Shown here one piece after another: positions 3,414 to 54,043 of a stretch of DNA of 64,000 bases. A program made the position numbers and the translations under genes. Source of the stretch: Prolixibacteraceae bacterium (GTDB lineage: Bacteria; Bacteroidota; Bacteroidia; Bacteroidales; Prolixibacteraceae); NCBI GenBank assembly GCA_023229575.1, contig JALNYZ010000009.1:69581-133580 (forward strand). Reading direction: 5' to 3'. The notes under the pieces are model-generated. The model made no database searches and was not told the DNA's origin. It saw nothing but the letters and a program-made list of their open reading frames with translations. Every line of letters begins with the position of its first letter. Within the stretch, counting starts at the first letter, position 1.

Positions 3414-3423
3414 AAATCCGTTT

Positions 3424-3656
3424 AAAATTATTACACAGAGAAATTACTAGTTTTGAATGAAACTAAAAATAGCTTTAAAATTGTTGCCTGATCATCAAAA
3501 CACTTGAGGAATCCCCGAGTGCACAGAGAGAAAAATCGCAAGCGATTTTTAAACTCAGCGAACTCAGTATTTTCTCTAAAATTTATCTAAAGACAAACAT
3601 ATCTATACTCGCTAAATTCTCAATTATTTGAAAATTATTCTCTGTGTTATTAATTA
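3424..3656. repeat. MITE/REP-like intergenic element bounded by imperfect inverted repeats
   Basis: AATTATTACACAGAGAA (3426-3442) faces TTCTCTGTGTTATTAATT (3639-3656), with 2 mismatches in 17. Inside are an AAAAATCGC/GCGATTTTT hairpin and CACAGAG / CTCAGCGAACTCAG motifs. There is no ORF. Confidence 0.35.
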
Positions 3657-3680
3657 AAACAGTCTCTAAATATAACTGAT

Positions 3681-11201: not shown

Positions 11202-11240
11202 ACGAATAAAAATGACATTGTTAGCATATTGATTCATTTT

Positions 11241-12275: not shown

Positions 12276-12282
12276 TAATTCC

Positions 12283-13191: not shown

Positions 13192-13237
13192 TAGGGCATA
13201 ATTGGATTTCAATCGTCAACGAAAACTTGAATTTTAT

Positions 13238-14293: not shown

Positions 14294-14304
14294 TATCTTT
14301 CAAA

Positions 14305-14991
14305 ATGGGAAAAATAAAACTTTCACCATCGATGATGTGTGCCGATTTTTTGAACATCCAAGACGAATTGGATATTTTTCAGAAATACAACATTGATTTT
14401 CTGCATATTGATGTAATGGATGGTCATTATGTGCCTAACTACACACTAGGCATTGATTTCTGTAAAAGCCTGAAACGATATTCATCCATTCCACTGGATA
14501 TTCACCTGATGATCGAAAATGTAGACCAATACATCGAATCATTTTGTCAGTTTGAAGGTTCATGGGTGAGTTTTCATCCTGAAACCACATGGCATCCGGT
14601 GCGCACCATTGAACAGATTAAAAGGCACAAATGCAAAGCCGGAATTGCGATTGATACTGCCGTAAGCATTGACCAATATAAAGAACTCTACGAACTGGTT
14701 GATTTTGTACTGGTCATGACTGTTACTCCTGGTTATGCCGGACAAAAGATTCTTCCGTTCTGTCTTGAAAAAATAGCTAAGTTAAATGCAGATTTCAAAC
14801 AAGCCAATATAATGGCAGCTATAGAGGTGGATGGTAACGTAAGTTGGGAAAATATCCCATCAATGGTAGAGGCCGGAGCAACTGTATTGGTAAGTGGATC
14901 ATCATCCATTTTCGATTCAAAATTCGGCAGGTCAGAGGCAATTGAACGTGTCAGGGAGTTGCTTGAATTTTACGAAGAGGCTGAGCTTTGA
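14305..14991 (+). CDS. Ribulose-phosphate 3-epimerase family, D-allulose-6-phosphate 3-epimerase (AlsE)-like
   Basis: KLSPSMMCADFLNIQDE....FLHIDVMDGHYVPN...LDIHLM...VMTVTPGYAGQ...EVDG follows the RPE/AlsE pattern along the whole length. Confidence 0.85.
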   Translation: MGKIKLSPSMMCADFLNIQDELDIFQKYNIDFLHIDVMDGHYVPNYTLGIDFCKSLKRYSSIPLDIHLMIENVDQYIESFCQFEGSWVSFHPETTWHPVRTIEQIKRHKCKAGIAIDTAVSIDQYKELYELVDFVLVMTVTPGYAGQKILPFCLEKIAKLNADFKQANIMAAIEVDGNVSWENIPSMVEAGATVLVSGSSSIFDSKFGRSEAIERVRELLEFYEEAEL

Positions 14992-15309: not shown

Positions 15310-16308
15310 ATGGACAATACACAGGATTCCTACTGGGAAAAAATGGCAGGAAAACTTCACGGGGAACTAAGCAAGGAGGATGAAGTTGGTTTCGATGAAC
15401 TAATCTCTGATCAAGGTCGTTTATTGGAATTTAATAGGGTACGAAGTATTCGGGACAACCTATCCCTGGCCGGTTCTTGTCCGATTGATGGCAAGGAGAA
15501 ATCATGGAGCAGGGTGCAAGCCTCTATTCGGTGGACCAAAATTCGATGGATCAATACAACACTGAAATATGTGGCAATTGTTGTAGTAGCCTTTGTAGCC
15601 GGTATATTGCTTCAATCCAATTTAACTGGCAGCACAACGCTGCACTTCTCCGAAATACATATCCCATACGGTCAAATGGGCCAGCTCACACTGAGCGATG
15701 GAACAGAGGTATGGCTGAATTCCGGAACTACCCTTAGGTATCCCGACCGGTTCGGAACCAGGAGCAGGAATGTAGAGGTAATTGGGGAGGCCTTTTTTAA
15801 AGTAGCCAAGATTCCTGATAAGCCTTTTACTGTCAATTCGACAGATTTAAATATAGAGGTTCTGGGCACATCTTTCAATTTCTCAGCCTATCAGAGGGAC
15901 AATTTCTCTTCAGTTACACTGGTTGAGGGTAAAGTTGCCATTCAGGACAATGAGGGGGTAACCATTGCCCAACTCCATCCGGGTCAGATCGCCAAAAAAG
16001 TCAATAGTTCAAAAAAAATGGACATTAATGAGGTAAATACAACCTCTTATGCTGCATGGACTGATGGTAAAATGCTTTTTGAAGATGAAAGGTTGGATCA
16101 GATTGCTTTTAAATTGGAGCGATGGTTCAATGTGGAGATCTCTTTTGCCGATCCTGAGTTAAAGTCCAAACGGTTTACGGGCACCATACTGAAATACAAA
16201 CCGGTGGATCAGATCATGCAGGCGCTGGAACTTCTTGCCCCAATCAAATTTATACACAAAATAAATACCAATGGAAAAGATCAAATAACCATATTTAAAC
16301 GAACTTAA
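15310..16308 (+). CDS. FecR-family anti-sigma factor (transmembrane sensor)
   Basis: Short cytoplasmic N-domain, a single TM (YVAIVVVAFVAGILL), and a periplasmic FecR / DUF4974-like C-terminus (EGEAFF.V, V.V.GT.FN..AY). It lies directly upstream of an STN-bearing SusC. Confidence 0.85.
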   Translation: MDNTQDSYWEKMAGKLHGELSKEDEVGFDELISDQGRLLEFNRVRSIRDNLSLAGSCPIDGKEKSWSRVQASIRWTKIRWINTTLKYVAIVVVAFVAGILLQSNLTGSTTLHFSEIHIPYGQMGQLTLSDGTEVWLNSGTTLRYPDRFGTRSRNVEVIGEAFFKVAKIPDKPFTVNSTDLNIEVLGTSFNFSAYQRDNFSSVTLVEGKVAIQDNEGVTIAQLHPGQIAKKVNSSKKMDINEVNTTSYAAWTDGKMLFEDERLDQIAFKLERWFNVEISFADPELKSKRFTGTILKYKPVDQIMQALELLAPIKFIHKINTNGKDQITIFKRT

Positions 16309-16427: not shown

Positions 16428-19400
16428 ATGAAAATGCACCAAATTATCCTTGGCGATAAAAGGTCGTGGATAAAAAAACTCAGAATAATGAAACTAACTG
16501 TCATTCTGTTGTTTGGAAGTATGGTTGCCATGAGTGCAACTACTTATTCTCAGACTGCCAAACTGAATATCTCTTCTAAAAACGCCGCACTGATTGATGT
16601 TTTCAGGAACATTGAAGATCAAAGCGAATTCTATTTTTATTTCAACAAAGAGGACTTAAAGACAAAAGAAGCTGTGACTGTTGAAATGAAAGATGCACAG
16701 ATCAATGACGTTCTGGATCAGGTTTTGGCAAAAACCGGATTGGAATATAAAATTATTGACCGGTATGTTGTTGTCAAAGAGAAGGGAAGTGATGAACCAG
16801 TCATTACCATGCAAGTGGCGCGTAAAATAACAGGAAAAGTCACTGACACCACAGGCGGGGCATTGCCCGGTGTGACTGTTGCCATCAAAGGAACAACAAC
16901 AGGTGTGATCACCGATAACAACGGTAACTATTCTTTGTCCAATGTTCCAGATAATGCTGTTTTGGTTTTCTCATTTGTTGGATTGAAAAACCAGGAAATT
17001 CCAGTAGGAGGCAAATCGGTTATCAACGTATCGATGGCAGAAGAAGCGCTGGGGATCGAAGAGGTTGTTGTAACAGGTTATTCTACTCAACGAAAGAAGG
17101 ATATTACTGGTGCGGTAGCCGTTGTGGATGTTCAATCCATGAAGGCAATGCCTTCTGGATCTGGTGTTGTTGCCCTCCAGGGGCAGGCATCGGGTGTCAA
17201 TATTATCAGCAGTGGGGCTCCGGGGGCGGCCAGTCAGATTTATATCCGCGGTATCGGAAACTTTGGAAATGTTGCCCCGCTCGTGTTGATTGACGGAGTA
17301 GGGGGAAATCTAGAGGATATCAGCGCCAACGAAATTGAGTCCCTCCAGGTGTTGAAAGACGCCGGATCCGCTGCTATTTACGGTGTGAGAGGGTCCAATG
17401 GTGTAATTATTGTAACCACCAAAAAAGGTAAAACCGGCGCTCCGACTGTTTCCTATGATGCTTATGCTGGCCTTCAGTTGCCTTTCAGCGGCAACCCGCT
17501 GAATATGGCAAACACAGAGGAGTATATAAAATTATTTAAATCCGCTATTCCTTACCACGGCTTCGATAATGGTATTCCTGATTACATGTACAGGAGTGGT
17601 AGCGGCGCTGCTGCCTGGGCTATGGCGGGCGACCCTGCTGTAGATCCGGCAAAGTATAAATATGATCCAATCACCCTCGGTACCAATTATATCATCGCGA
17701 AGGTCAATAAGCAAGGAACAAACTGGTACCAGGAAATCTTTAAGCCAGCAGTAACCAGCAACCAGGATTTAACCGTAAGTGGCGGAACGGAGAAGGCCAA
17801 ATACCTGCTTTCCCTGGGTTACCTGGATCAAAAAGGCACGCTTATTGAGACTTATCTTAAAAGGTATTCATTTAAGGTAAATACTGAATACAATGTGGGC
17901 AAGCATATCCGCATTGGTGAAAATTTATATATCATCCGTAAAGCAGGCAATGGTTATACCAACACTTCAGAGAGCAATGCAGTTTCGAACGCCATGTTGA
18001 TAAACCCGCTGTTTCCGGTATACGATATCTCCGGGAAACAATTTGCAGGCGCCTATTCTTACCCCATTACCACTATGCTGGCGTACGGTTCAAACCCAGT
18101 CGCTAACCAGAAACTGACGAATAACAATTATGACCATTCCCTTCAGTTAACTGGTAACATATATGCAGAAATCTCCTTCTTAAAACATTTTGTGGCGCGC
18201 ACCAGTATGGGATTAAGCCTGGGCAATTCAGAAGGAAGTGGATTTGCCTACAACCGCTATTTTGATGCCCAGTCCTTTGCAGTCCCCAACAATCTGACTT
18301 TATCCATGGGGAATAGCTGGAGTTATCTTTTCACAAATACTTTGAAATACGAAAATACTTTTGGCGACCATAAACTGTCAGTATTGGCTGGTTCTGAAGC
18401 AAATGAAGGTATGTCAAAAAGTGTTTATGGATACAGGCAAAATTTTCTGGTCAGTGATGCAGACTATCTCCTGTTGCAGAACGGCAGTATCGATGGGATA
18501 CAAAACGGCAGCGGCAAATCCCATGGGACCCTGTTTTCCCTTTTTGGCCGCGCGGATTATTCTTACCTGGATAAATACCTTCTGGCACTGACCATCCGTC
18601 GAGATGGCTCTTCATCTTTCGGGCCCAAGAGCAGGTATGGCTATTTTCCTTCAGTATCTGTAGGATGGCGCTTATCCGGCGAATCATTCCTGAAAAATAT
18701 TTCGTGGTTAAACGATTTGAAGATCAGGGCCAGTTATGGTCAGGCAGGTAATGCGAGCAATGTTAATCCCAATAATGCATACTCTGTCTTTGGAACAGGA
18801 GTCGGTAAATCCTATTATGATATAGCCGGTAGCAATAACAGCTCGACCCAGGGTTTTTATGCAAGCCAGCTAGGAAATGACCTGACTTCATGGGAAAAGG
18901 ATATTATCACCAATTTCGGACTTGATGGTACGATACTGAACAACAAGATTGAATTTTCTGCGGAGTATTACAAAAAATCAATTGAGGGATTGTTGTTTGA
19001 CCAGCAATTACTTGCCACCGCCGGTGGGGCTGCTGCACCAAAAGTGAACATTGGCGACATTCAGAACAATGGATTGGATATTTCTGTGACCTATCGGGAT
19101 AAATTCAGCAAGGATTTGAGTTTTAACATTACAGCCAACATTACGAGTTATAACAACAAAGTAGTTAGTATCCCTGGTCAGGCAGGCTATTTTGATACAG
19201 GCGCCCTACGCGGGGTCGGTAATGTTGTTCGTAATCAGGTAGGTCATCCGGTGGGCGCTTTCTTTGGGTACAAAGTTATTGGAATCTTTAAGGATGCTGC
19301 TGCAGTTGCCGCTGCGCCTGCCCAGTTGGACAAAAGGCCGGGGGTATTTCAATACGATGATACCGATGGTAAACCTGGTATAACAGCTGCTGACCGAGTT

Positions 19401-19919
19401 TTCATGGGTAGTCCAAATCCTGATTATACATATGGGGTGAATATCGGACTGAACTATAAGAATTTTGACTTCTCAACTGTTTTCTATGGCTCTCAGGGGA
19501 ATGAGATATTTAACCAAACAAAATTTTATACCTATTTCACAAGCTTTTTCCAATGCGGTCTGAATAGAAACCTGTTGAATGCCTGGTCACCGACCAATAC
19601 CGGTTCGGATATCCCTGTATTGTTAAGTACCGCCAGTTTCAGCGAAAACACGGTTCCAAATTCATGGTTCATTGAAGATGGTTCCTTCTTCAAATGCAGG
19701 TTAATTACACTGGGTTATACGTTGCCCCCTTCCGTGCTTAAAAAGCTGACACTTCAGAAATTAAGGGTATATCTGCAGGCGGTCAACCCCTTCCAGATTA
19801 CAAAATACAGTGGATTGGATCCTGAAATTCCGGGCAGTACATCAGCCTTTGGAATTGACGTAGGTAACTATCCCAACAACCAAAGGCAATTTAATGCGGG
19901 TATAAGTTTATCATTCTGA
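16428..19919 (+). CDS. SusC/RagA-family TonB-dependent transporter with N-terminal STN signalling domain
   Basis: 1163 aa. STN domain (TYSQTAKLNISSKNAALIDVFRNIEDQSEFYFYF...), then a CarboxypepD_reg-like domain (ITGKVTDTTGGALPGVTVAIKGTTTG), a plug (IESLQVLKDAGSAAIYGVRGSNGVIIVTTKKG), and a barrel ending ...NAGISLSF. Confidence 0.95.
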   Translation: MKMHQIILGDKRSWIKKLRIMKLTVILLFGSMVAMSATTYSQTAKLNISSKNAALIDVFRNIEDQSEFYFYFNKEDLKTKEAVTVEMKDAQINDVLDQVLAKTGLEYKIIDRYVVVKEKGSDEPVITMQVARKITGKVTDTTGGALPGVTVAIKGTTTGVITDNNGNYSLSNVPDNAVLVFSFVGLKNQEIPVGGKSVINVSMAEEALGIEEVVVTGYSTQRKKDITGAVAVVDVQSMKAMPSGSGVVALQGQASGVNIISSGAPGAASQIYIRGIGNFGNVAPLVLIDGVGGNLEDISANEIESLQVLKDAGSAAIYGVRGSNGVIIVTTKKGKTGAPTVSYDAYAGLQLPFSGNPLNMANTEEYIKLFKSAIPYHGFDNGIPDYMYRSGSGAAAWAMAGDPAVDPAKYKYDPITLGTNYIIAKVNKQGTNWYQEIFKPAVTSNQDLTVSGGTEKAKYLLSLGYLDQKGTLIETYLKRYSFKVNTEYNVGKHIRIGENLYIIRKAGNGYTNTSESNAVSNAMLINPLFPVYDISGKQFAGAYSYPITTMLAYGSNPVANQKLTNNNYDHSLQLTGNIYAEISFLKHFVARTSMGLSLGNSEGSGFAYNRYFDAQSFAVPNNLTLSMGNSWSYLFTNTLKYENTFGDHKLSVLAGSEANEGMSKSVYGYRQNFLVSDADYLLLQNGSIDGIQNGSGKSHGTLFSLFGRADYSYLDKYLLALTIRRDGSSSFGPKSRYGYFPSVSVGWRLSGESFLKNISWLNDLKIRASYGQAGNASNVNPNNAYSVFGTGVGKSYYDIAGSNNSSTQGFYASQLGNDLTSWEKDIITNFGLDGTILNNKIEFSAEYYKKSIEGLLFDQQLLATAGGAAAPKVNIGDIQNNGLDISVTYRDKFSKDLSFNITANITSYNNKVVSIPGQAGYFDTGALRGVGNVVRNQVGHPVGAFFGYKVIGIFKDAAAVAAAPAQLDKRPGVFQYDDTDGKPGITAADRVFMGSPNPDYTYGVNIGLNYKNFDFSTVFYGSQGNEIFNQTKFYTYFTSFFQCGLNRNLLNAWSPTNTGSDIPVLLSTASFSENTVPNSWFIEDGSFFKCRLITLGYTLPPSVLKKLTLQKLRVYLQAVNPFQITKYSGLDPEIPGSTSAFGIDVGNYPNNQRQFNAGISLSF

Positions 19920-19944: not shown

Positions 19945-21753
19945 ATGAAAAAAATATATTTTAAAATAACTTATGCAGTATGTCTGATGACCATGTTATC
20001 ATTCATTTCCTGTACAAAGTCTTATCTGGATATAAAACCTATAGGAAGCGTAAGTGTAGCAATCCTTGCCAATAAAACCGGCGTCAACAAAGTACTCATT
20101 GGCGCTTATGCAACGCTGGAAACAAACCATTCGAACAACGTTGGTTATGGTGACGGATATTGGGTTGGCTATGGCCCGTTTTATTCGGATATCGCTTCAC
20201 ACGAAGCAATATGGGGTTTTCAATATGAGCCAAATACCAATTCATTTGAGCGGCATGATGGACAACCCTCCTATAAAGTATTTGCCTATCATTGGGTGAA
20301 TTTCTATTATGGCGTTCAGGCCGCCAATGATGTATTGCGTGTATTGGCAGCTGTGCCGACAGATCAGCTTACCGCAGCCGAAGCCTTGCAGATTAAGGCA
20401 GAAGCAACATTCTTAAGGGCCCTCCACCATTTTAGGCTAAAAAAGACGTTTGGGAATGTTCCATATATCGATGAAACCATTACGGCCAACAACTGCAATG
20501 TATCAAACGCTACCTCGATATGGCCAAAAATTGAGGCAGATTTTAAATTTGCCGCGGATAATCTGGATGAGACAAAGGCTGATGTTGGCAGGGCCAATAA
20601 ATGGGCCGCAAAGGCATTCCTGGCCGAAGTGTATATGCAACAGGGTAAATATTCCGATGCATTGCCTTTGCTTACCAGTTGCATCACCAACGGAGTTACC
20701 CAAAAGGGCTTGAAATATGCCCTTGTAGCCAATTATCCCGATATTCTCAATTTTAGAAAAGAGGCCAACTCCGAACAGGTGTTTGCAATTCAGTTCACCT
20801 TCGACGGTACATCGGTTGCCGCCCCAAATGGCAACTGGGAATATGCTGTTATTCAACCGGTAACCCCGCCCAATCAGGGAGGCGGTGGTGGTTTCTGCTC
20901 TTTTGATATGGTGAACGCCTTTAAAACCGATGCCGTTACAGGGTTGCCTATGTTTGACACTTACAATGATGTTAACATGACGAATGACCAGGGTCTAGGT
21001 CTTAATGATCCGTTTACTCCATATGCAGGGACAGTCGATCCAAGGCTGGATTTTACCGTTGTACGAAGGGGGATTCCATATTTCGACTGGGGATTGTACA
21101 ATGTCAACTGGGCTTACGATCAACCGGAGACGGGCCCTTACTCCTGGAAAAAGTTTTCATTCAATAAAGCTGACCTGGCTGCGGTGCAAGCTAACTGGGT
21201 TGCAGTTTCCCCAATCAATGTTCCCCTTATACGGTTTGCCGACATACTGCTGCGTGCGGCTGAATGTCTGGTTGAAACAGGTGGAAGCCTCTCCACTGCT
21301 GAAGGATATGTGAACCAGGTGAGACAGCGGGCCGCCAACCAAAGTGCATGGGTTAAAACCTATGTTAACAATAGTAGTCCTGCATTGGGGTTCACCAATA
21401 CACCAGCTGCAAATTACTTCATCAGTCCTTATACCGGTCAGTTTACGGCCAATGGCGCAACTTATGCCCGTAAGGCAATTCGTTTTGAAAGAAGGCTAGA
21501 GCTGGCATTGGAAAGTAAGCGTTTCTTTGACCTGCAGCGCTGGGATGCCGGTTCAGGTAGCATGGCAACTGAATTGAACCGCATACTTGATCATTCAAGA
21601 TCCTTTATGACAATTTATAAAGGTATTTATCCGAATATGGTTGGGGCCAAATTCACAAAGGGGAAAAACGAAGTATTTCCTATCCCGCAATCCCAAATTG
21701 ACTTGAGTATGGTCGAAGGCAAACCCGTATTGGTTCAAAATCCCGGGTATTAA
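19945..21753 (+). CDS. SusD/RagB-family lipoprotein
   Basis: Lipobox LSFISC followed by TKSYLD. It is adjacent to the SusC gene. The C-terminus reads RFERRLELALESKRFFDLQRW ... VQNPGY. Confidence 0.9.
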   Translation: MKKIYFKITYAVCLMTMLSFISCTKSYLDIKPIGSVSVAILANKTGVNKVLIGAYATLETNHSNNVGYGDGYWVGYGPFYSDIASHEAIWGFQYEPNTNSFERHDGQPSYKVFAYHWVNFYYGVQAANDVLRVLAAVPTDQLTAAEALQIKAEATFLRALHHFRLKKTFGNVPYIDETITANNCNVSNATSIWPKIEADFKFAADNLDETKADVGRANKWAAKAFLAEVYMQQGKYSDALPLLTSCITNGVTQKGLKYALVANYPDILNFRKEANSEQVFAIQFTFDGTSVAAPNGNWEYAVIQPVTPPNQGGGGGFCSFDMVNAFKTDAVTGLPMFDTYNDVNMTNDQGLGLNDPFTPYAGTVDPRLDFTVVRRGIPYFDWGLYNVNWAYDQPETGPYSWKKFSFNKADLAAVQANWVAVSPINVPLIRFADILLRAAECLVETGGSLSTAEGYVNQVRQRAANQSAWVKTYVNNSSPALGFTNTPAANYFISPYTGQFTANGATYARKAIRFERRLELALESKRFFDLQRWDAGSGSMATELNRILDHSRSFMTIYKGIYPNMVGAKFTKGKNEVFPIPQSQIDLSMVEGKPVLVQNPGY

Positions 21754-21849
21754 AACTTAATTGTTGGAAATATTCAATATTAATGTAAAATATAACAAGT
21801 ATTATCGAATAACTATTTTATACGAAACGTCAGTTTTTCAAATCATTGA

Positions 21850-21881
21850 ATAACCCCGGTCATGTGACCGGGGTTATTTTC
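21850..21881 (+). terminator. Rho-independent terminator after SusD
   Basis: Perfect dyad ATAACCCCGGTCA / TGACCGGGGTTAT (a stem of about 12 bp around CATG), followed by TTTTC. Confidence 0.65.
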
Positions 21882-22024
21882 ATAAATTGTCGGAAACCTT
21901 TGAGAATACTAATACAGTTAAACAAAATCAATGAAATACCCATGGGAAAACATTCACACCAACCGAATCCGCCAGATGGCGGATGGGTATTCCATGCGAC
22001 CTTAAAAAAACAAATTATATACGC

Positions 22025-23659
22025 ATGAAAATTAAATTTAAGGAGATGGATATTACCTACGAGTCGAAAATTATTGCCTGTCGGCAATCTCAATCCATAG
22101 GGAGCAAGGTTCCCTGTTTTCAACCAGCCAAGGCCAATGACAGTTTTGTATCTGTTTTTGTAAGAGGACGTTTACAGCATAAAGCTATAGTAATGTTGCT
22201 GCTCTGTACAATTTTTTTTGCTTCTGCCAATGCCCAGGTTGGTAAATTGTACATCGGCACTGCAACAGCAGATATCTCACCCAAACTGCCAATTGCATTG
22301 GGAGGCCAGTTTGAATTGCGGATCGCCCATCAGGCAGCCACACCATTTTCTGCCAATGTGGTGGCATTGGAAACCAGAAATGGCAACCAGTCTGTTGACC
22401 AGGCCATTATGGTCTCGTGCGATCTGGAGGGTATCCCTGAGCTTTTGCTTAAAGTGTTAAGGGATGAGGTGCACCGGCAAATGCCGGATTTCGATGTTAA
22501 GAAAATCTTTCTGAACGCCATCCATACACATACGGGCCCTGTCTTGCTGAGCGCCGATGAAACCCCAATGTGGGGATATATAATACCCAAGGAAGGTGTC
22601 CAGCAGGTAGATGAGTACCGTACTTTTTTTGTTCAGCGGGTGGCAGCTGCTATCGTACAGGCGTGGAAAGGGCGGTTACCCGGAAGTATGACATGGGGGC
22701 TCAGCAGTGCCGTGATCGCTAACAACCGGCGTACCATCTATGCTGATGGTTCGGCAAAGATGTACGGAAATACCAACTCACCGCTATTCCGTGGAATGGA
22801 GGGCATCGAAGATCACGATGTCAATATTCTCTTCTTCTGGAACCAGGCCAAAAAGTTGATTGCGGTCAATATTGAAGTACCCTGTCCGGCCCAGGAAGTT
22901 GAGAATGATACGATTTTGAACGCAGATTACTGGCATCCGGTACGGGTAGGTTTGCGCAAGCGATTTGGCCCGGATTTGTGCGTTTTAGGTTGGATTGGTG
23001 CCGGGGGTGACCAGTCACCACACCTGATGTACCGCAAGGCAGCCGACGACAGGATGCGCAAACTGCGTAACCTTAACCGGCTAGACGAGATTGCCCGTCG
23101 CGTTGTCCGTGCGGTAGACGAGGCCTATGATGCAGTGAAGGACGACCGCCACGACAATGTTGTGCTAATCCATAAAGTCGAGACGCTCCGGTTGCCATTC
23201 AGGTTGATAACTGATGCCGAATGTGCGGAGGCAAAGGCCATCAGCGACGAGGCCAGGGCACAGATTGCTGCAAATCCAAAAGCTGCAGATCTGCTCTTTG
23301 CCAAAATGAAGTGGTATGGAAATATTGTCACTCGTTTCGAAAAACAGAAAACCGACCCCCGGTCGAAACATGAAATGGAGATACATGTGTTGCGCATCGG
23401 GGACATAGCATTGTGCACCTACGGTATTGAAGTTTTTACTGATTATGGGATTCAACTTCAGGCGCGCAGCAAGGCCCTACAGACATTCATTGTTGAGATT
23501 GCAGGGCCTGATGACTATTACCTTCCAACGGAAAAAGCTGTTAAGGCCGGCAGTTACAGCGCCATCGCAGAGAGCAATATTGTGGGCCCTGATAGTGGTC
23601 AGATACTGGTAGAACGAACAATAGAACTGATCAACAGTATGTGGCCGGAAGTAAAATAA
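22025..23659 (+). CDS. Neutral/alkaline-ceramidase-like N-terminal-domain protein (putative Zn amidohydrolase), paralogue 1
   Basis: IGTATADISP...VVALE...MVSCDL...KIFLNAIHTHTGP matches the neutral ceramidase catalytic-domain pattern (..DITP..., ..aTHTHsGP). Signal-like segment MLLLCTIFFASANAQ. The start is ambiguous among 21983, 22025, 22046 and 22193. Paralogues lie at 29772 and 61742. Confidence 0.6.
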   Translation: MKIKFKEMDITYESKIIACRQSQSIGSKVPCFQPAKANDSFVSVFVRGRLQHKAIVMLLLCTIFFASANAQVGKLYIGTATADISPKLPIALGGQFELRIAHQAATPFSANVVALETRNGNQSVDQAIMVSCDLEGIPELLLKVLRDEVHRQMPDFDVKKIFLNAIHTHTGPVLLSADETPMWGYIIPKEGVQQVDEYRTFFVQRVAAAIVQAWKGRLPGSMTWGLSSAVIANNRRTIYADGSAKMYGNTNSPLFRGMEGIEDHDVNILFFWNQAKKLIAVNIEVPCPAQEVENDTILNADYWHPVRVGLRKRFGPDLCVLGWIGAGGDQSPHLMYRKAADDRMRKLRNLNRLDEIARRVVRAVDEAYDAVKDDRHDNVVLIHKVETLRLPFRLITDAECAEAKAISDEARAQIAANPKAADLLFAKMKWYGNIVTRFEKQKTDPRSKHEMEIHVLRIGDIALCTYGIEVFTDYGIQLQARSKALQTFIVEIAGPDDYYLPTEKAVKAGSYSAIAESNIVGPDSGQILVERTIELINSMWPEVK

Positions 23660-23729: not shown

Positions 23730-25964
23730 ATGAATACGAAATCATCCCTTATTCTGTTGTTGGCAACTCTTTTTATCTCCTTCGGTTTTAAAGTCGTACC
23801 TGAAGAAAAAAAGCAATTGAGCGATAAAGAGCGGATGAAGCATGAAGCCAGCGCCATTCCCGGAGTTGAGAAGAAAGTCCTTGACCTGCTTTCAAGGATG
23901 ACATTGGAAGAAAAGGCAGGCCAAATGGTACAGGTTACCCCGGCAATTGGAAATAAGGAACAGATTGCCCTGTTTGGTAAGAAAAACGTGGGAAGTGTCT
24001 ATTATTCACCTGAAAACTTCTCGATAAACGATTGGTACGTTTATGAAAAAAATTATATGGAGAGCTACCTTGCCAACAACAGGTTAAAAATACCATTCTT
24101 ATCGCCGCATTGCTTTCAACACGGCGCCACTTACATTAAAGATGCAACGATATTCCCGCATAACCTTACCTTGGCCGCCACTTTTACCCCCGGGTTTGGC
24201 CAGGAGATGGGAAATGTGACAGTATTGGAATGTGGCGACCTGGCGCATAATTTTATCTGGGTGCCGGTCATGGATATTGGCCGCAACCACCGCTGGTCAA
24301 GATTTTTTGAAACTTTTGGCGAATCGTATTATCTCTGTTCACGAATGGGCGAAGCCATTGTAAAGGGGATCCAGGATACTGTTCTAACCTCGCCCTATAA
24401 GGTCGCGGCCTGCGCCAAACATTTTATTGGTTATTCAGATCCCCGGTCCGGCTGGGACAGGTCCCCGGTAATCATCGCGGACCAGGAGCTTTATGAGTAT
24501 TATGTTCCCTCCTTCAAGGCATGTATCGATGCAGGGGTAAAGATCATTGAGGCCAACAGCGGCGAAGTGAATGGCATTCCGGTCCATGCTTCGCACCGGT
24601 TGCTGACAACCTTGCTTCGCGACGAAATGGGGTTTAAAGGCCTGCTAAATTCAGATTACCAGGATATCCGAAAACTGGCAACTTACCACCATGTTGCGGC
24701 AAACGAGAAAGAAGCTGCCTATTTAGGGGTGATGGCCGGTCTTGACCTTGTCCTTACCCCGCACGACCTGCTGTTTGCCGATGATGTGATTGCTTTGGTC
24801 AAAGAGGGAAGGATTTCAGAAGAACGAATTGATTTATCAGTAGCGAGGGTCCTTCGCCTAAAATTTGAACTTGGGTTGTTTGACCATCCTATGCCCCGCG
24901 ACGACCGGTTCGACCGCTTTGCCAGGCCGGAATCAACGCAGAAAGCGTTAAACGCCGCACGCGAAGCAATTGTTTTGTTAAAAAACGAAAACAACCTGCT
25001 CCCATTAAACCTACAAACATCAAAACGGATCCTTGTAACCGGTTTTAATGCCAATAAAAGGATGGCAACCAGTGGTGGCTGGACAGTTGTGACAACCTCC
25101 CCCAAAGCCAAAACGGTTTTTGAAGGGATCACAGAACAATTCCACGACAGCAAAGTTACCCTGGCTGAAAACGATGTCACTAAGATTATAACCGGCGCCA
25201 AAGATGCTGATGCGATCATCTATGTGGCCGGGGAAAATCCCTACAGTGAAGAAAGGGGCAATATCCAGGACGTGAACCTTCCTGATGATCAATTGGAGCA
25301 AATCAATGCAGCAATTTCAACAGGCAAGCCTGTCATACTGATCATGGTTGCCGGAAGGCCACTGATTATTACCAGGGTATTTGACCGCTGCAAGGCCGTA
25401 CTCTGGGCCGGACTTCCCGGGTATGAAGGGGCAAGGGCCATTGCCGAGATTCTAACCGGAACAGTCAATCCTAGCGGGAAACTGCCTTTTGCCTATCCCT
25501 ACACCGATTCGCGCAACTTGACCTACAACCAGAAATACCACGATTTACAACTGACCAAAAACCTGAATGTGCCCTGGACATTTGCCGATTTTGGAAGTGG
25601 GATGGGTTATACCACCTTTTCATACAGTAATATTCAATTGTCAGACACCATCATAAACGGAAAAAACGGTTCATTGAAAGCAACCGTGAAGGTGACCAAT
25701 ACAGGAAAACTTGATGGAAAAGAGGCGGTACTGTGGTTTCTTTGGGACGAAGTGGGCAGTATCACCCGACCCATCAGGGAGTTGAAATATTTCGAAAAGG
25801 AACTGATCAAAAGCGGGGAGGAAAAAACTTTTACTTTTGTGATTGATCCTGAAAGGGATCTGAGCTTTCCCAATGAAAAAGGTGAAAAACTGATTGAAGA
25901 GGGGTATTTTACACTTTCTGTTGGCAACCAAACGGCGAGGTTTCATTTAAAAGAGATAAAATGA
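23730..25964 (+). CDS. GH3 glycoside hydrolase (beta-glucosidase/beta-hexosaminidase type)
   Basis: Motifs KHFIGYS and GFKGLLNSDYQDI (nucleophile region), an alpha/beta C-domain, and a C-terminal FnIII-like domain (VKVTNTGKLDGKEAV). Confidence 0.85.
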   Translation: MNTKSSLILLLATLFISFGFKVVPEEKKQLSDKERMKHEASAIPGVEKKVLDLLSRMTLEEKAGQMVQVTPAIGNKEQIALFGKKNVGSVYYSPENFSINDWYVYEKNYMESYLANNRLKIPFLSPHCFQHGATYIKDATIFPHNLTLAATFTPGFGQEMGNVTVLECGDLAHNFIWVPVMDIGRNHRWSRFFETFGESYYLCSRMGEAIVKGIQDTVLTSPYKVAACAKHFIGYSDPRSGWDRSPVIIADQELYEYYVPSFKACIDAGVKIIEANSGEVNGIPVHASHRLLTTLLRDEMGFKGLLNSDYQDIRKLATYHHVAANEKEAAYLGVMAGLDLVLTPHDLLFADDVIALVKEGRISEERIDLSVARVLRLKFELGLFDHPMPRDDRFDRFARPESTQKALNAAREAIVLLKNENNLLPLNLQTSKRILVTGFNANKRMATSGGWTVVTTSPKAKTVFEGITEQFHDSKVTLAENDVTKIITGAKDADAIIYVAGENPYSEERGNIQDVNLPDDQLEQINAAISTGKPVILIMVAGRPLIITRVFDRCKAVLWAGLPGYEGARAIAEILTGTVNPSGKLPFAYPYTDSRNLTYNQKYHDLQLTKNLNVPWTFADFGSGMGYTTFSYSNIQLSDTIINGKNGSLKATVKVTNTGKLDGKEAVLWFLWDEVGSITRPIRELKYFEKELIKSGEEKTFTFVIDPERDLSFPNEKGEKLIEEGYFTLSVGNQTARFHLKEIK

Positions 25965-27937
25965 AAAAGACTAAAAATCAAGCATGTATGCGATTACTGA
26001 CGGGTATTGCTTTATTGACAGTTCTGTTTTTTGGCGGCGCAAATCTAAGGGCACAAACGACAGGTTCAAGTTGTATCATCGATGTTTCGAAGCCAGGCGT
26101 CCAGGTTGCCCCAATTTGCAGGGGACAACAAATTGAAGAATTCAATTACCAGATTCAGGGAGGCTTGTATGCACAGTTGATCAACAACCCATCTTTTGAG
26201 GAACTGAAAGATCCAATAGCTTATTGGACGTTGGTAAAATCCGCATCATCCAATGGCAATCTGGTAAGCCAGGCTTCGGCTGAAACAAGCATGCTGAACG
26301 GCCATCAGGCACGTTGCGTTAAACTTGAGGTAACTTCAGTGGCTTCGGGAGATGTTGGTATGGCAAACAGTGGCTACTGGGGGATTAGATTAGACAATAA
26401 GACAAAATACAAAATTTCGTTCTGGGCCAAAGCTGGTACAAATTTCAGTGGTACCATAAAAGCTAAACTTGAAAGCAACGATGGTACCGTTTATGCACAA
26501 TCGGCAGACCTTAAACCGACCGTTAACTGGCAGCATTTTACCTGCGACCTGATCACCAAAGGCATTTCAAAGGTTACGGGAACCAACCGGTTTGTCATTT
26601 ATGCCACATCTCCGGGAGATATCTATTTTGATGTTGTCACATTGATGCCTCCTACCTGGAAAAACCGGCCCAACGGGCTCCGGCCTGATTTGGCAAAGAA
26701 GCTGGCAGATTTGAAACTAAAATACATACAATTTCCCGGAGGTTGCACAGCGGAATCAGCCAATATGGATTCGTGCTGGAACTGGAAGAATTCGGTTGGT
26801 CCAATTGAACAACGACCGGGTTCCACCAGAAACAGGTGGAACTATAAAAACGACCTCTATTTTGGGTTGGACGAGCATATGCAGTTGTGTGAAGATTTGG
26901 GGGCGGAACCCATTTATGTGACCTCCGCCGGTATCAGTGAAAATCCCGGATCGAAACGTTGGTGGGGACTTTGTCCGCTAAATAAGATGCAGCCAATCAT
27001 TGACGACATCCTGGATTTGCTTGAGTATTGCAAGGGGTCTACCGCAACGGTATGGGGGGCAAAACGTGCCGCAAATGGCCACCCCAAACCTTATAGTCTT
27101 AAATACATTGAGATAGGCAACGAAAATGGGGGGAATGCCGATACGGTATACTCGCCCCGGTATGCGATGATCCGAAATGCCTTACTTGCCAGGTATCCTG
27201 ATATCGAATTCCTTTACAATGGGCATCGTCAAACCAATGAGCTTTCGCATACGTTTGGAAATCCGGTTGATTTCGTCGATGAACATTTTTATTTAAAAGA
27301 CCTGTCGCCATTCTATAACAAATACGACAGCATCGATCCGGCCTGCAAAAAAATCTGTGTTGCCGAATATGCAACCTCCATCAAAGGAAACGGGGGAAAC
27401 GTAATTGGAAACTTCGGTGACGCGCTTGGGGATGCGGCCTTTATGCTGGGTTGCGAGAAGAATTCGGAGCGGATGTGGTGGACCGGATATGGCAATTATG
27501 CCGGCCTTGTAGGTCATGGTAATTTTGGGCCATGTATCGTTTGGAACGACGCAGTTTCGTGCTTTGCTTCCCCTTCGTATTATATGCAGAAAATGTTGTT
27601 CACGGATAATCCGGGTTCCCGTATTTTGCCTTTTGTTCAAAATACTGAAAACTGTTTCTGGTCTGCTTCAATCGCTTCTGAATCCGGCAAGAATGATATC
27701 CTGCTTAAAGTGGCCAATAAAAACAGCACTTCCAAAACAGTAAATATTACTTTAAAAGGAGCCGGCAAAGTCAATTCTGTTGGTCATTCTACGCTTTTGA
27801 CAGGGGCTTTGGACGCAGAAAATTCAATTTCAGAACCGGTTAAAATTGTACCTTCGACAGGTACGTTTACTGCTGGAAGTAGTTTTACTTATACATTCCC
27901 TGCCAATTCGGTTAATGTTCTCAGGATTGGGCTATGA
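25961..27937 (+). CDS. GH51-type alpha-L-arabinofuranosidase with N-terminal CBM-like domain
   Basis: GGLYAQLINNPSFEE, LKYIQFPGGCTAE, NWKNSVGPIEQRPG, YIEIGNENGG (acid/base) and ICVAEYAT (nucleophile region). Its start overlaps the GH3 stop (ATGA). Confidence 0.75.
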   Translation: MKKTKNQACMRLLTGIALLTVLFFGGANLRAQTTGSSCIIDVSKPGVQVAPICRGQQIEEFNYQIQGGLYAQLINNPSFEELKDPIAYWTLVKSASSNGNLVSQASAETSMLNGHQARCVKLEVTSVASGDVGMANSGYWGIRLDNKTKYKISFWAKAGTNFSGTIKAKLESNDGTVYAQSADLKPTVNWQHFTCDLITKGISKVTGTNRFVIYATSPGDIYFDVVTLMPPTWKNRPNGLRPDLAKKLADLKLKYIQFPGGCTAESANMDSCWNWKNSVGPIEQRPGSTRNRWNYKNDLYFGLDEHMQLCEDLGAEPIYVTSAGISENPGSKRWWGLCPLNKMQPIIDDILDLLEYCKGSTATVWGAKRAANGHPKPYSLKYIEIGNENGGNADTVYSPRYAMIRNALLARYPDIEFLYNGHRQTNELSHTFGNPVDFVDEHFYLKDLSPFYNKYDSIDPACKKICVAEYATSIKGNGGNVIGNFGDALGDAAFMLGCEKNSERMWWTGYGNYAGLVGHGNFGPCIVWNDAVSCFASPSYYMQKMLFTDNPGSRILPFVQNTENCFWSASIASESGKNDILLKVANKNSTSKTVNITLKGAGKVNSVGHSTLLTGALDAENSISEPVKIVPSTGTFTAGSSFTYTFPANSVNVLRIGL

Positions 27938-28055: not shown

Positions 28056-28871
28056 ATGGAAATAAGATATATTTGTACATATTGGGGCCAGGGGCATTTG
28101 CCGGTAAATGAATTTGTAGCTAAAGCAGTGGAAGCGGGGTACGACGGAATTGAGATTGGTATTCCAATTTATGAAAAATTCACATCTTCAGCATTAAGGG
28201 CTATTGAGAATTCGGGCGTCAGCTTTATCGCACAGCAGTATTTACAACCGGTAATAGAATCGTTTGACCGATACCGTGGTAGGTTGAATGAATATTTAGC
28301 TTTTTTGGCTGCATTAAATCCCATCTTCATCAACTCGCACACAGGAAAGGATTTTTATTCATTTGAAGAAAATGCTATTTTAATCGAGGATTGTTTCCGC
28401 TTTTCCAATCAGACTGGGATTCAGGTCTTTCATGAAACGCATCGTGGTCGGTTCTCTTACCACGCTAGCAACCTTTTGCCCTATATCGACAAATTTGAGA
28501 ACCTCAAACTTACTGCTGATCTATCCCATTTTTGCGTTGTTTCAGAAAGTCTTCTGGAAGATCAGGAAGATATTCTTGATAAAATTTTGGCCCGTTGCAC
28601 ATATATTCATGCCCGGGTAGGTTTTGGTCAGGCCGCACAGGTAAATCATCCATTTGCACCTGAATGGCAGACTACATTGGATCGTTTTGTAGGATGGTGG
28701 CAAAGAATAATTGAATTAGCAAAATCCAAAAGGAGTGGAATATTTTACATTTGTCCTGAATTTGGACCGGCTCCTTATATGCCGACTCTTCCATTTACAC
28801 AACAATCGGTTGCAAATCAATGGGATATTAATATTGAGATGATGAAATACCTTAAGAAGGAATTGAAGTAA
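28056..28871 (+). CDS. Xylose-isomerase-like TIM-barrel protein (sugar phosphate isomerase/epimerase family), cytoplasmic
   Basis: No signal peptide. Motifs AGYDGIEIGIP, FHETHRGR, ADLSHF and IHARVG follow the metal-ligand pattern of this fold. Confidence 0.65.
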   Translation: MEIRYICTYWGQGHLPVNEFVAKAVEAGYDGIEIGIPIYEKFTSSALRAIENSGVSFIAQQYLQPVIESFDRYRGRLNEYLAFLAALNPIFINSHTGKDFYSFEENAILIEDCFRFSNQTGIQVFHETHRGRFSYHASNLLPYIDKFENLKLTADLSHFCVVSESLLEDQEDILDKILARCTYIHARVGFGQAAQVNHPFAPEWQTTLDRFVGWWQRIIELAKSKRSGIFYICPEFGPAPYMPTLPFTQQSVANQWDINIEMMKYLKKELK

Positions 28872-28923: not shown

Positions 28924-29700
28924 ATGACAGGCAAGTATAAAGTAACCCCCGAGCAAACAGCGTTTTTCAACGACCAGGGATATCTGCTGGTAAAGGATAT
29001 TATCTCGGCTGAAGAGGTTCTGCGCTACTCCGGGATTTATGATAAGTTTTTGGATGGAACCATTGATGCCGGGAAAAACCGCGCTGATCTTGGTATTGGT
29101 ATGGCAAAATCGGGTCAAGTGGAAGCCATTACGCAAATCATGTGGCCAAGTGATTTTATGCCGGCGCTGTTAGAAATGTCATTTCACCATCGGGTACTTT
29201 CCATTTCCCGTGATTTGCTTGGTAAGGATATGGACTTTGATTTTGATATGCTGATCAGTAAAGCCCCGGGTACAAATAGTCCTACTCCCTGGCACCAGGA
29301 TGCAGCTTATTGGATTAATATGCCAGATACGAGGGCAGTCAGTTGTTGGATGACGTTGGATGATTCCACCAAAGAAAATGGATGTATGTGGTATGTCCCG
29401 GGATCCCACAAACTACCTTTGCGCCCCCATCGATTTGCGGGGAAAGTTGGCGGAGCGCTGATGTGTGATTGTTCGGAAGAAGAGGGTCTGGCCATTGAGA
29501 TTAAGCCGGGTTCATGTATCTTTCATCACGGACATACCCTTCATTATAGTCGTGGCAACTCAACCCCTGGCAACCGAAGGGCTTTTATCATTAACCTCAG
29601 ACCTGAGACGATGATCGCTTTGGAACGTGAAAAGGGATACGACCATGGTCGGGGAGGCAATGCCGCAGACAGGCAACTGCGAAATCAAGAGATAAAATAA
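28924..29700 (+). CDS. Phytanoyl-CoA dioxygenase (PhyH) family Fe(II)/2-oxoglutarate oxygenase
   Basis: FFNDQGYLLVKD N-terminus, WHQDAAYW (HxD of the facial triad), a distal His in HGHTLHYSRGN, then RRAF. Confidence 0.8.
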   Translation: MTGKYKVTPEQTAFFNDQGYLLVKDIISAEEVLRYSGIYDKFLDGTIDAGKNRADLGIGMAKSGQVEAITQIMWPSDFMPALLEMSFHHRVLSISRDLLGKDMDFDFDMLISKAPGTNSPTPWHQDAAYWINMPDTRAVSCWMTLDDSTKENGCMWYVPGSHKLPLRPHRFAGKVGGALMCDCSEEEGLAIEIKPGSCIFHHGHTLHYSRGNSTPGNRRAFIINLRPETMIALEREKGYDHGRGGNAADRQLRNQEIK

Positions 29701-29771: not shown

Positions 29772-31301
29772 ATGCAAAATAATATTGTTTCAGGAAAAAA
29801 AAGGGGTGAAAGCCAACACATCGCATTGTTAAAAGTTTCAATGCCCCAATTGGCGGTAATAATTTTCTCTCTTTTCATTGCTACACTGGGTAGTACAGCG
29901 AATTCACAAGGCCAACAACTAAATATTGGTGTGGCTACAGCCGACATTACCCCGGTCCTGCCTGTTGCCCTTGATGGCCAGATGTATTTGCGGGTGGCAA
30001 AAGAGGTAGAAACCCCACTTTCGGCCAGCGTTTTGGTAATGGAATCCCGTCAGGGAAGTAAATCAATGGAATCTGTGGTTTTCGTATCCTGTGAATTGGT
30101 GGCGGTTCCTTCAGATTTATTGGCAATGGTTCGCAAAGAGGTGCACCAACGATTGCCAGAATTAGATGTGAATAAGATCGTTATGAATGCCATCCATACA
30201 CATACGGCCCCTGTTGTCAGGTATGGGCTTTATGATATCCCTAAGGAGATTACCCAAATTGAAGCCTATTACACCTTCTTCACAAAGCGTGTTTCAGATG
30301 CCATTGAAGAGGCCTGGAAAAGCAGGGCACCGGGCAGTATAACCTGGGGACTTAGTCAGGCGAAGGTCGGGTACAACCGTCGGGCAACCTATTCTGACAA
30401 CTCTTCAAAGATGTATGGAAAAACCAATCAGGATGATTTTAGGGGGATAGAAGGCTATGAAGACCAAAATGTGAATACCTTGTTTGTTTGGAACCAGGCC
30501 GGCAAACTTACAGCCGTCAGCATTGATGTTGCTTGTCCTGCACAGGAAGTCGAGCATAGGGAAAAAATCAATGCAGATTATTGGTTTCCTGTCAGAAATG
30601 CCTTGCGCAAACAGTTTGGTCCAAAACTTTGTGTGCTGGGTTGGATTGCGGCAGCAGGAGATCAGTCACCACACTTGATGTACGGCCAGGCTGGAGAGGA
30701 GCGAATGCGCAACCTGCGCAAACTGGACCGTTTGGATGAAATAGCGCGCCGCGTAGTAAATGCCGTTGAGGATGCATATGAAGTTGTTAAGTCGGATCGC
30801 CACAAGGAGATAAAATTGGTACATGAGGTCGAAAAAATTTCATTGCCAATGAGGATCGTATCGGATGCAGAATATGAGCAGTGTAAGATTGAGGTGAACA
30901 AAGCGAAGGAGCAAATAGCCAAAGATCCAAAATCATCCGACCAGCTATTCAGAAAGTTAAACTGGGAAGGAGATGTAGTCCGGCGATATGAGGAACAGAA
31001 AACCAATCCGCACCCAATGTATGATACTGAGATACATGTGCTCAGGATTGGGGATGTTGCTGTATGTACCAACTCTTTCGAACTTTTCACAGATTACGGC
31101 ATCGCTATTCAGGCACGGAGCCTGGCAGTGCAGACATTTGTTATTCAACATGTAGGCCCGGGAACCTATCTTCCAACAGAAAAAGCTGTTAAGGGCGGTA
31201 GTTACAGTGCGATCATAGAGAGTAACCTGGTAGGACCGGAGGGTGGGCAGATTTTGGTTGACCGCACAGTAAAATTGATTAATGGCATGTTTGCGCAATA
31301 A
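29772..31301 (+). CDS. Neutral/alkaline-ceramidase-like N-terminal-domain protein, paralogue 2
   Basis: Collinear with paralogue 1 over the full length, and more than half the positions look identical by eye. Shared blocks: IGVATADITP, NAIHTHTAPV, CPAQEVE, DYWFPVR, AAAGDQSPHLMY, HVLRIGDVAVCT, YLPTEKAVKGGSYSAI. An alternative start lies at 29841. Confidence 0.6.
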   Translation: MQNNIVSGKKRGESQHIALLKVSMPQLAVIIFSLFIATLGSTANSQGQQLNIGVATADITPVLPVALDGQMYLRVAKEVETPLSASVLVMESRQGSKSMESVVFVSCELVAVPSDLLAMVRKEVHQRLPELDVNKIVMNAIHTHTAPVVRYGLYDIPKEITQIEAYYTFFTKRVSDAIEEAWKSRAPGSITWGLSQAKVGYNRRATYSDNSSKMYGKTNQDDFRGIEGYEDQNVNTLFVWNQAGKLTAVSIDVACPAQEVEHREKINADYWFPVRNALRKQFGPKLCVLGWIAAAGDQSPHLMYGQAGEERMRNLRKLDRLDEIARRVVNAVEDAYEVVKSDRHKEIKLVHEVEKISLPMRIVSDAEYEQCKIEVNKAKEQIAKDPKSSDQLFRKLNWEGDVVRRYEEQKTNPHPMYDTEIHVLRIGDVAVCTNSFELFTDYGIAIQARSLAVQTFVIQHVGPGTYLPTEKAVKGGSYSAIIESNLVGPEGGQILVDRTVKLINGMFAQ

Positions 31302-46952: not shown

Positions 46953-46954
46953 AA

Positions 46955-49312: not shown

Positions 49313-49320
49313 ATTGAACA

Positions 49321-54027: not shown

Positions 54028-54043
54028 ATTCTTAAGAAAAAAA

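Follow-up and report, generated by a model that had tools for sequence, protein, structure and literature searches.

A large uncharacterised family of ceramidase-fold proteins encoded in sugar-degrading gene clusters of Bacteroidota and Planctomycetota

To our knowledge, the fold of neutral ceramidase has so far been linked to one reaction, in the metabolism of sphingolipids. The 64-kb stretch of a Prolixibacteraceae metagenome-assembled genome analysed here (the window, 64,000 nucleotides in full) encodes three proteins resembling the catalytic domain of this enzyme, designated P1, P2 and P3, which are located in polysaccharide utilization loci (PULs). This raises the question of what ceramidase-like proteins do among genes for the uptake and degradation of glycans. 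The three paralogous open reading frames (ORFs) had been pointed out in a preliminary description made from the sequence alone, and all three were found, on the forward strand (Table 1). They align from end to end, as had been stated there: P1 and P2 share 57% identity in a MAFFT alignment (55% by BLASTP), P1 and P3 36%, and P2 and P3 35% over about 500 residues (BLASTP E=2e-102), which is far beyond chance. The sequence blocks described as common to the three proteins were all seen in the alignment with the exception of VSxDL, which reads VSCEL in P2. The only annotation available for P2 is "hypothetical protein".

The relationship to neutral ceramidase was identified on the level of the fold. 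When the AlphaFold2 model of P2 (pLDDT 90.7, pTM 0.87) was compared with the PDB by Foldseek, the real matches were neutral ceramidases only, namely the Pseudomonas aeruginosa enzyme (CerN or PaCD; 2ZWS, E=6e-22, TM 0.65 over the query) and human ASAH2 (4WGK, E=3e-21), with TM values of about 0.1 for the next ones; in this search, no PDB structure besides ceramidases matched the family. The identity of P2 to the ceramidases is 13-16%, and a phmmer search of the PDB sequences with the single P2 sequence gave no match. A profile built from 40 family members retrieved 4WGK (E=1.8e-4) and 2ZWS (E=1.1e-3) from the same sequences. For a profile-profile comparison, four true ceramidases in full length, P. 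aeruginosa CerN among them, were taken from plasmid records, and hhalign aligned the family with them over 436 columns (probability 97.6%, E=3e-12). Residues 36-489 of P2 were aligned with residues 15-493 of the 670 residues of CerN, P2 stopping at the end of the catalytic domain; homology therefore extends over the entire catalytic domain, and the C-terminal Ig-like domain is missing. No Pfam match to the C-terminal ceramidase domain (PF17048) was found in P1-P3.

The likeness to the catalytic domain of neutral/alkaline ceramidase that had been noticed in the sequence was thus borne out by the fold, the profile-profile match and the aligned catalytic residues. However, the comparison with the Pfam model PF04734, which had been proposed as a check, left all three proteins below the gathering cutoff of 32.1 bits (29.7 for P2, 16.8 for P1 and 11.1 for P3), and only the N-terminal third of the profile was covered. 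No NCBIfam model matches P1-P3, nor was a Pfam match to a known carbohydrate esterase family identified for them. P1-P3 are ceramidase-like in fold and in their core catalytic residues, and they are placed outside the curated ceramidase family because the Pfam cutoff, one metal ligand and the domain architecture all fail. The nearest known system is the neutral/alkaline non-lysosomal ceramidase (EC 3.5.1.23; PF04734 with PF17048; PDB 2ZWS and 2ZXC for the P. aeruginosa enzyme, 4WGK for the human one).

For the active site, residues are numbered as in P2 unless stated otherwise, and conservation is given over 142 family copies from 77 loci. The zinc ligands of PaCD are reported to be His97, His204, Glu411 and Tyr448 (mature numbering; Inoue 2009, Airola 2015), with His303 as the human counterpart of His204. 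They coincide exactly with H121, H228, E435 and Y472 of the CerN precursor, all of which are invariant columns. In a joint alignment, H142, H144, E437, Y466 and Y478 of P2 correspond to H97, H99, E411, Y448 and Y460 of PaCD, R204 (or R203, with a shift of one residue) corresponds to R160, and S299 to the serine of the GDxSP motif. His142, His144, Arg203, Asp269 and Glu437 are present in 142/142 copies, Tyr466 and Tyr478 in 141 each, and Ser or Thr at position 299 in 120. The catalytic roles of His196, Arg257, Tyr579, Tyr591 and Ser354 in the human enzyme are given in a review (PMC6952831). The window family shares with neutral ceramidase the HxH motif, the metal-binding Glu and Tyr, the Arg and Tyr of catalysis, and the serine of GDxSP. 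Since these core residues are invariant or nearly so, all tandem paralogues look catalytically competent.

One metal ligand differs. The second zinc-binding His of the ceramidases (PaCD His204) aligns with Pro256 in P1-P3, and Cys255 is found at the preceding position. In the preliminary description, missing metal ligands had been named as a point against the ceramidase relationship, and this objection holds in part: His142, Glu437 and Tyr466 are in place, whereas the second His is replaced. The same [C/S/A]-P pair at positions 255-256 characterises the majority type of the family (127/142 copies, including P1-P3), and it is strictly correlated with Gln258 (100%), Glu261 (96%), His351 (96%), His422 (97%) and Arg185 (98%); at position 422, true ceramidases contain Gln. 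On sequence grounds, the metal site of the majority type is predicted to be rebuilt, not lost, with the Gln258, Glu261, His351 and His422 set compensating for the second His. Cys255 was considered as a universal replacement zinc ligand and rejected, since only 98 of the 142 copies have Cys at this position, the others having Ser or Ala.

A minority type (15/142 copies, none of them in the window), designated xH, keeps the second His and a ceramidase-like Tyr-Glu pair after Tyr478. It comprises the subfamilies C, D, G, I and J, which have the same length and PUL context as the main type and are found side by side with it in the same operons. With His at position 256 and Tyr-Glu after Tyr478, the xH subfamilies are nearer to the ancestral ceramidase site, whereas P1-P3 are all of the derived Cys-Pro type. 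P1 and P2 belong to the main subfamily A and P3 to the rare subfamily F. The HDH motif of P3 had earlier been read as a sign of functional divergence. As a one-off change (1/142) of a residue that is not a ligand it is weak evidence for this; that P3 stands apart is correct insofar as it falls into a separate subfamily.

The family extends far beyond the window. At 50% identity, 3,751 clusters were obtained with E<=1e-3 and 1,431 with E<=1e-10, and more than 3,400 at 90% identity came from a word-index search. Among the 120 matches listed, every source name was "hypothetical protein", and a search of the literature found no paper on the family. It is a large uncharacterised sister family of the ceramidases without a curated model, which is represented in Bacteroidota, Planctomycetota, Acidobacteriota and Verrucomicrobiota by several thousand sequence clusters. 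In the assembly that contains the window, a fourth and a fifth copy are present in another PUL, beside GH51.

SPI-like signal peptides were found by a heuristic scan for hydrophobic segments in 115 of the 142 copies, including P1-P3; the three proteins are predicted to be exported, like the secreted or exported neutral ceramidases, and are probably periplasmic. The longest ORFs of P1 and P2 probably overshoot the real starts. The likely true starts are the Met codons at 22193 for P1 and 29841 for P2, each of which yields a normal signal peptide (MLLLCTIFFASANA|Q in P1), and the conserved core starts about 25 residues past these codons. Between the stop of the SusD gene and the likely start of P1 lie about 440 bp (21754-22192), which is unusually long for a tightly packed locus, and the annotated P1 versions of 544-558 amino acids read through this gap.

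The gene neighbourhoods were compared at 79 loci from reference genomes (42 from Bacteroidota, 32 from Planctomycetota, 3 from Acidobacteriota and 2 from Verrucomicrobiota), at which ORFs were called, neighbours were clustered and cluster representatives were annotated; the tallies refer to 35 Bacteroidota and 25 Planctomycetota loci. Two to five family copies are present at 32 of the 79 loci. A non-catalytic role for some of these tandem paralogues was considered and discarded, since every copy keeps the core catalytic residues. SusC/SusD genes are in proximity at 11-13 of the 35 Bacteroidota loci, and GH3, GH51, CE4 and SASA genes are recurrent neighbours, CE4 (PF01522) being found beside the family at 6 of the 35. 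A protein with DUF7133, HEAT and cytochrome c domains (DUF7133cyt) and an AP_endonuc_2 TIM barrel (TIM) each occur at 17 of the 35 Bacteroidota loci. The commonest neighbour in Planctomycetota is a GFO_IDH_MocA oxidoreductase (10/25 loci), for which the best curated match, below the cutoff, is the BT_2158 glycoside 3-dehydrogenase family.

Three types of operon organization were identified, in which CER denotes a member of the ceramidase-fold family. Type I, present in the Cytophagales Dyadobacter, Cyclobacterium, Lunatibacter and Telluribacter, has the order SusC-SusD-CERx4-5-DUF7133cyt-TIM-TIM-CER, is tightly packed on one strand and contains no detected glycoside hydrolase; here DUF7133cyt is a protein of about 1,010 amino acids annotated as "PVC-type heme-binding CxxCH protein", and the two TIM proteins are AP_endonuc_2 barrels. 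Five operons of this type (Table 1) hold no other kinds of gene. Type II, from Sphingobacteriales, has the order DUF7133cyt-CER-TIMa-CE4-CER-ILVD/EDD dehydratase-SDR, with DUF1080-like genes nearby, TIMa being one subfamily of the TIM barrels. Type III, from Bacteroidales and Prolixibacteraceae, has the order U710-GH3-CER-GH3-CER-FibSucc-FibSucc-CER followed by MFS-isomerase-like-PfkB-class III aminotransferase-GFO_IDH_MocA, often with GH51.

The last part of type III forms a conserved cytoplasmic module of an MFS transporter, a 452-amino-acid protein (U452), PfkB, a class III aminotransferase and GFO_IDH_MocA, which was observed at six loci (L008:1-11521, L026, L027, L032, L045 and L067) and adjoins a GH116 gene in L008. 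U452 has a distant likeness to sulfoquinovose and L-arabinose isomerases. Searches of the PDB sequences with the aminotransferase, PfkB, GFO_IDH_MocA, U452, DUF7133cyt, a second TIM group (TIMb) and the TIM domain fused to CER gave only generic or uncharacterised relatives, by which no substrate was indicated.

Fusions of family members to other domains provide a second line of association. An N-terminal AP_endonuc_2 TIM barrel is fused to CER in four separate clusters at 50% identity (P0127, P0140, P0145 and P0196). These fusion proteins carry signal peptides, and by sequence their TIM domain falls into the subfamily of TIMa, the neighbour barrel (E=1e-64 to 1e-75), so that fusion and neighbourhood point independently to one partner; its nearest solved relatives are 3P6L and 4KW2, both uncharacterised "sugar phosphate isomerase/epimerase" proteins. 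Single fusions to DUF1080, esterase, sugar-binding and acetyltransferase domains were also identified (Table 1), and the catalytic residues are intact in all fusions. The protein with the N-terminal GNAT domain lacks a signal peptide, which suggests a cytoplasmic fusion for acyl transfer and acyl hydrolysis.

It can be stated that the family is genomically tied to carbohydrate uptake and processing, and that P1-P3 are clear structural relatives of ceramidase in a new genomic context. Because the family sits in sugar-degrading gene clusters and not in lipid ones, it probably has a role in glycan breakdown, at a step which has gone unrecognised; the context favours a sugar-derived substrate over a glycolipid. 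For P1-P3, we give about an even chance to a role as metal-dependent hydrolases, specifically deacylases, which act on glycan-derived substrates in the periplasm, and an N-deacylase role, as had been suggested before, is plausible. In the proposed mechanism, which follows that put forward for ceramidases, water bound to the metal and activated by His144, the second His of the HxH motif, would attack the carbonyl carbon, and Arg203/204, Tyr478 and the metal would stabilise the tetrahedral intermediate. Instead of ceramide, the enzymes would act on an acyl group carried by an imported glycan fragment or sugar derivative, and the bond, by homology, would most likely be an amide, although an ester is possible. 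Once this group is removed, the neighbouring exo-glycosidases (GH3, GH51), or in other lineages the oxidative sugar enzymes, could complete the degradation, and tandem paralogues may serve different substituents or sugar contexts.

This deacylase role fits the links to esterase, CE4, GNAT, aminotransferase and CBM-like proteins and the GH3 and GH51 partners. Among these, the CE4 deacetylase, the class III aminotransferase and the GNAT fusion are amine-handling partners. The CE4 de-N-acetylases and esterases offer a functional analogy only, namely the deacylation of a sugar by a metal-activated water; in fold and sequence they are unrelated to the family. Several points weigh against the deacylase role. 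The assignment as amidases is drawn from distant homology only, at the low identity to ceramidases given above, and the loss of the second His together with the changes at Pro256, Gln258, Glu261, His351 and His422 could indicate a different chemistry or a different metal. In addition, the strongest partners in other genomes (DUF7133-cytochrome c, TIMa, GFO_IDH_MocA and DUF1080 proteins) are redox enzymes, lyases or isomerases with no obvious need for a deacylase. Finally, we know of no abundant natural glycan with arabinofuranose or glucose and an amide-linked acyl group that would clearly fit the genes of the window.

These redox and lyase partners are the basis of the main alternative, which is considered rather unlikely, namely that the family is not an amidase but the hydrolytic or hydrating module of an oxidative ("non-Koshland") cleavage of glycosides, acting on oxidised sugars or glycosides of the 3-keto or lactone type. 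As an oxidative alternative to glycoside hydrolases, the combination of a Gfo/Idh/MocA oxidoreductase, a "sugar phosphate isomerase" lyase and a DUF1080 lyase/hydratase was described by Nasseri et al. (bioRxiv 10.1101/2024.03.25.586180), who established the pathway roles of the three component families. The oxidised substrates would be made by GFO_IDH_MocA or DUF7133-cytochrome c dehydrogenases, TIM-barrel and DUF1080 lyases would act alongside, and tandem paralogues would give linkage specificity in operons without glycoside hydrolases. All three component families adjoin or are fused to family members, as is evident from the type I operons, the four independent exported TIM-CER clusters with a domain of the TIMa subfamily, the CER-DUF1080 fusion, the DUF1080-like genes at type II loci and the similarity of the GFO neighbour to BT_2158; a periplasmic location is also common to both systems, and a rebuilt metal site would suit a new chemistry. 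However, the described pathway is complete without a ceramidase-fold enzyme, and the catalytic residues conserved between ceramidases and the family belong to a hydrolase that attacks a carbonyl. The genomes of Planctomycetota and Bacteroidota contain very many GFO and TIM genes, so that their adjacency may in part be background, a reservation that does not affect the fusions. In the window, GFO, TIMa, DUF7133cyt and DUF1080 genes were not found, and the partners of P1-P3 are ordinary GH3, GH51 and GH31 enzymes. The two TIM-like ORFs of the window are below the cutoff and unrelated to TIMa; a link to the oxidative enzymes through the ORF upstream of P2 was rejected, because a profile built without the window sequence gave no similarity to the neighbour TIM barrels or to the fused TIM domain.

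A broader formulation is offered tentatively. The ceramidase-fold proteins might constitute a new class of carbohydrate-active enzymes, which supply the bond-breaking and specificity-giving parts of a glycan degradation that is free of glycoside hydrolases and coupled to oxidation, and from which P1-P3 were recruited into conventional PULs. It is likewise only a possibility that in such a class the rebuilt metal site consists of His, Glu and Tyr with the new Gln/Glu/His set, and that the CER proteins are the sole predicted hydrolases of the type I operons in Cytophagales.

That the proteins are true ceramidases or close analogues, which free a fatty acid from ceramide or glycosphingolipid-type lipids, is improbable, in spite of the shared fold and catalytic residues. 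Candidate substrates would be glycosyl-inositol-phosphoceramides of plants or fungi, or glucosylceramide, with head groups trimmed by the neighbouring glycosidases; the GH51, GH20 and GH31 enzymes of the window could trim head groups containing arabinose or N-acetylhexosamine. The GH116 family is that of the glucosylceramidase GBA2, so that the GH116 gene beside a family member in L008 is in line with such a role, as are partners resembling those of inositol catabolism (the IolG-like GFO, the IolE/IolI-like TIM barrels and the PfkB kinase). However, P1-P3 lack the C-terminal domain and have one zinc ligand changed. Real bacterial ceramidases are flanked by sphingomyelinase and phospholipase C genes, as seen in the plasmid records, whereas at the 79 loci neither belonged to the neighbour families that recur; PULs, sugar metabolism genes and tandem arrays were found there instead. 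Fusions connect the family to CBM-like modules, carbohydrate esterases and sugar TIM barrels but to no lipid-handling domains, and four or five tandem paralogues would be hard to justify for one type of amide bond. The family-specific invariant residues are often polar or charged (Arg74, Arg185, Gln258, Glu261, Arg275, His351 and His422), which is suggestive only.

An action on a non-glycan amide imported by SusC/SusD, such as peptides, glycopeptide linkages (PNGase-like), lipoamino acids or siderophore-type amides, is very improbable, since the window loci are rich in glycoside hydrolases, fusions and neighbours are overwhelmingly carbohydrate-related and no recurrent peptidase or siderophore genes were found, even though ECF sigma factors, FecR and STN-domain TonB-dependent transporters also serve non-glycan uptake, type I operons lack glycoside hydrolases and the amidase machinery is conserved.

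As deacylases, the proteins would supply a missing step in the removal of substituents from complex glycans by environmental bacteria; as members of an oxidative route, they would be a missing module of a newly recognised alternative to glycoside hydrolases. Under either reading, the family is currently overlooked by pipelines for PUL annotation. The tandem arrays, the operons free of glycoside hydrolases and the fusions raise the interest beyond the window alone, and cultured hosts (Dyadobacter, Cyclobacterium, Lunatibacter, Mariniphaga sediminis, Agriterribacter humi and Singulisphaera) allow direct tests.

Within the window, nearly all genes are on the forward strand and arranged as PULs. 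The PUL setting of the ceramidase-like genes is real and unusual, and the SusC/SusD, GH3 and GH51 neighbours named earlier were confirmed by domain scans; a CE12 neighbour was not, since no SGNH or CE12 domain was detected in any scanned ORF of at least 150 amino acids. The tail of an upstream PUL (SusD, a beta-helix/Flg_new protein, GH31, GH20, an MFS transporter and a URO-D-like protein) is followed by a small block of sugar metabolism genes and then by the first complete PUL, with the order FecR-SusC-SusD-P1-GH3-GH51-(weak TIM-like ORF)-PhyH-P2. The second PUL has the order ECF sigma-FecR-SusC-SusD-SusC-SusD-BT_3987-like-beta-helix-GH3-GH31-DUF5107/TPR-DUF4832-unknown-beta-helix-unknown-P3; the latter unknown and beta-helix genes code for a 768-amino-acid unknown protein, a weak beta-helix protein and a 662-amino-acid protein with a weak FlgD-Ig match. 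P2 and P3 are the last genes of their PULs. GH3 and GH51 also recur beside family members at other loci.

Table 1. Features of the window, residues of P1-P3, and operons and fusion proteins of the family in other genomes (locus or protein identifiers as used in this analysis).
Feature	Position or identifier	Strand	Remark
FecR anti-sigma factor	15310-16308	+	heads the P1/P2 PUL
SusC-like TonB-dependent transporter	16428-19919	+	P1/P2 PUL
SusD-like protein	19945-21753	+	P1/P2 PUL; P1 directly downstream
P1	22025-23659 (longest ORF from 21983)	+	putative ceramidase-fold hydrolase, main subfamily A
GH3	23730-25964	+	between P1 and P2
GH51-type alpha-L-arabinofuranosidase-like gene	25961-27937	+	between P1 and P2
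AP_endonuc_2-like ORF, below cutoff	28056-28871	+	upstream of P2
PhyH-family dioxygenase	28924-29700	+	directly upstream of P2
P2	29772-31301	+	putative ceramidase-fold hydrolase, subfamily A; modelled protein
Second PUL	31548-61709	+	ends in P3; ECF sigma, FecR, two SusC/SusD pairs
P3	61742-63310	+	divergent paralogue, rare subfamily F; HDH instead of HTH
P1 H167, H169, C287, S331	22523-22525, 22529-22531, 22883-22885, 23015-23017	+	counted from 22025
P1 E469, Y499, Y511	23429-23431, 23519-23521, 23555-23557	+	counted from 22025
P2 H142, H144, R203/R204, C255	30195-30197, 30201-30203, 30378-30383, 30534-30536	+	
P2 Q258, E261, S299, H351	30543-30545, 30552-30554, 30666-30668, 30822-30824	+	
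P2 H422, E437, Y466, Y478	31035-31037, 31080-31082, 31167-31169, 31203-31205	+	
P3 H144, H146, C246, S290	62171-62173, 62177-62179, 62477-62479, 62609-62611	+	
P3 E451, Y481, Y493	63092-63094, 63182-63184, 63218-63220	+	
Type I loci	L055:863-16404, L070:29-17887, L078:59-18168, L083:18-17844, L088:359-17037		
xH-type examples	L086:11452-12933, L017:4926-6746		adjacent to main-type copies within one operon
DUF1080 fusion	P0132		"3-keto-disaccharide hydrolase" domain
BD-FAE esterase fusion	P0155		
GDSL/SGNH fusion	P0205		weak match, below cutoff
GH2_N fusion	P0174		sugar-binding domain
CBM9-like module fusion	P0268		
fn3 and HpiC1-like domain fusion	P0224		
GNAT acetyltransferase fusion	P0164		N-terminal; 672 aa

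Further observations were made on single genes of the window. For the PhyH-family Fe(II)/2-oxoglutarate dioxygenase at 28924-29700, no relatives were present among the neighbours at the 79 homologous loci. The beta-helix/Flg_new protein and GH31 are duplicated across two PULs (1866-5297 and 45429-50892, with 48% and 45% identity), a sign that the two loci are related and may serve variants of one glycan. The region 50908-57820 of the second PUL codes for poorly understood proteins, a DUF5107 protein with TPR repeats (1,039 amino acids), a DUF4832/GH42-like protein (494 amino acids) and the 768-amino-acid protein, the last without a Pfam match.

In the upstream part of the window, a URO-D family protein (uroporphyrinogen decarboxylase/methyltransferase-like, E=1e-62) is encoded at 8292-9314, right after GH20 and the MFS sugar transporter; such a protein is an odd partner in a PUL, and its substrate might be a modified sugar, for example a methylated one. 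At 11229-14991, two genes of the Zn-dependent alcohol dehydrogenase family surround a 302-amino-acid ORF with a weak likeness to AP_endonuc_2, and a ribulose-phosphate 3-epimerase gene comes next. This block, which adjoins a divergently transcribed regulator of the GntR/LacI type, is possibly a catabolic block for a polyol or keto-sugar.

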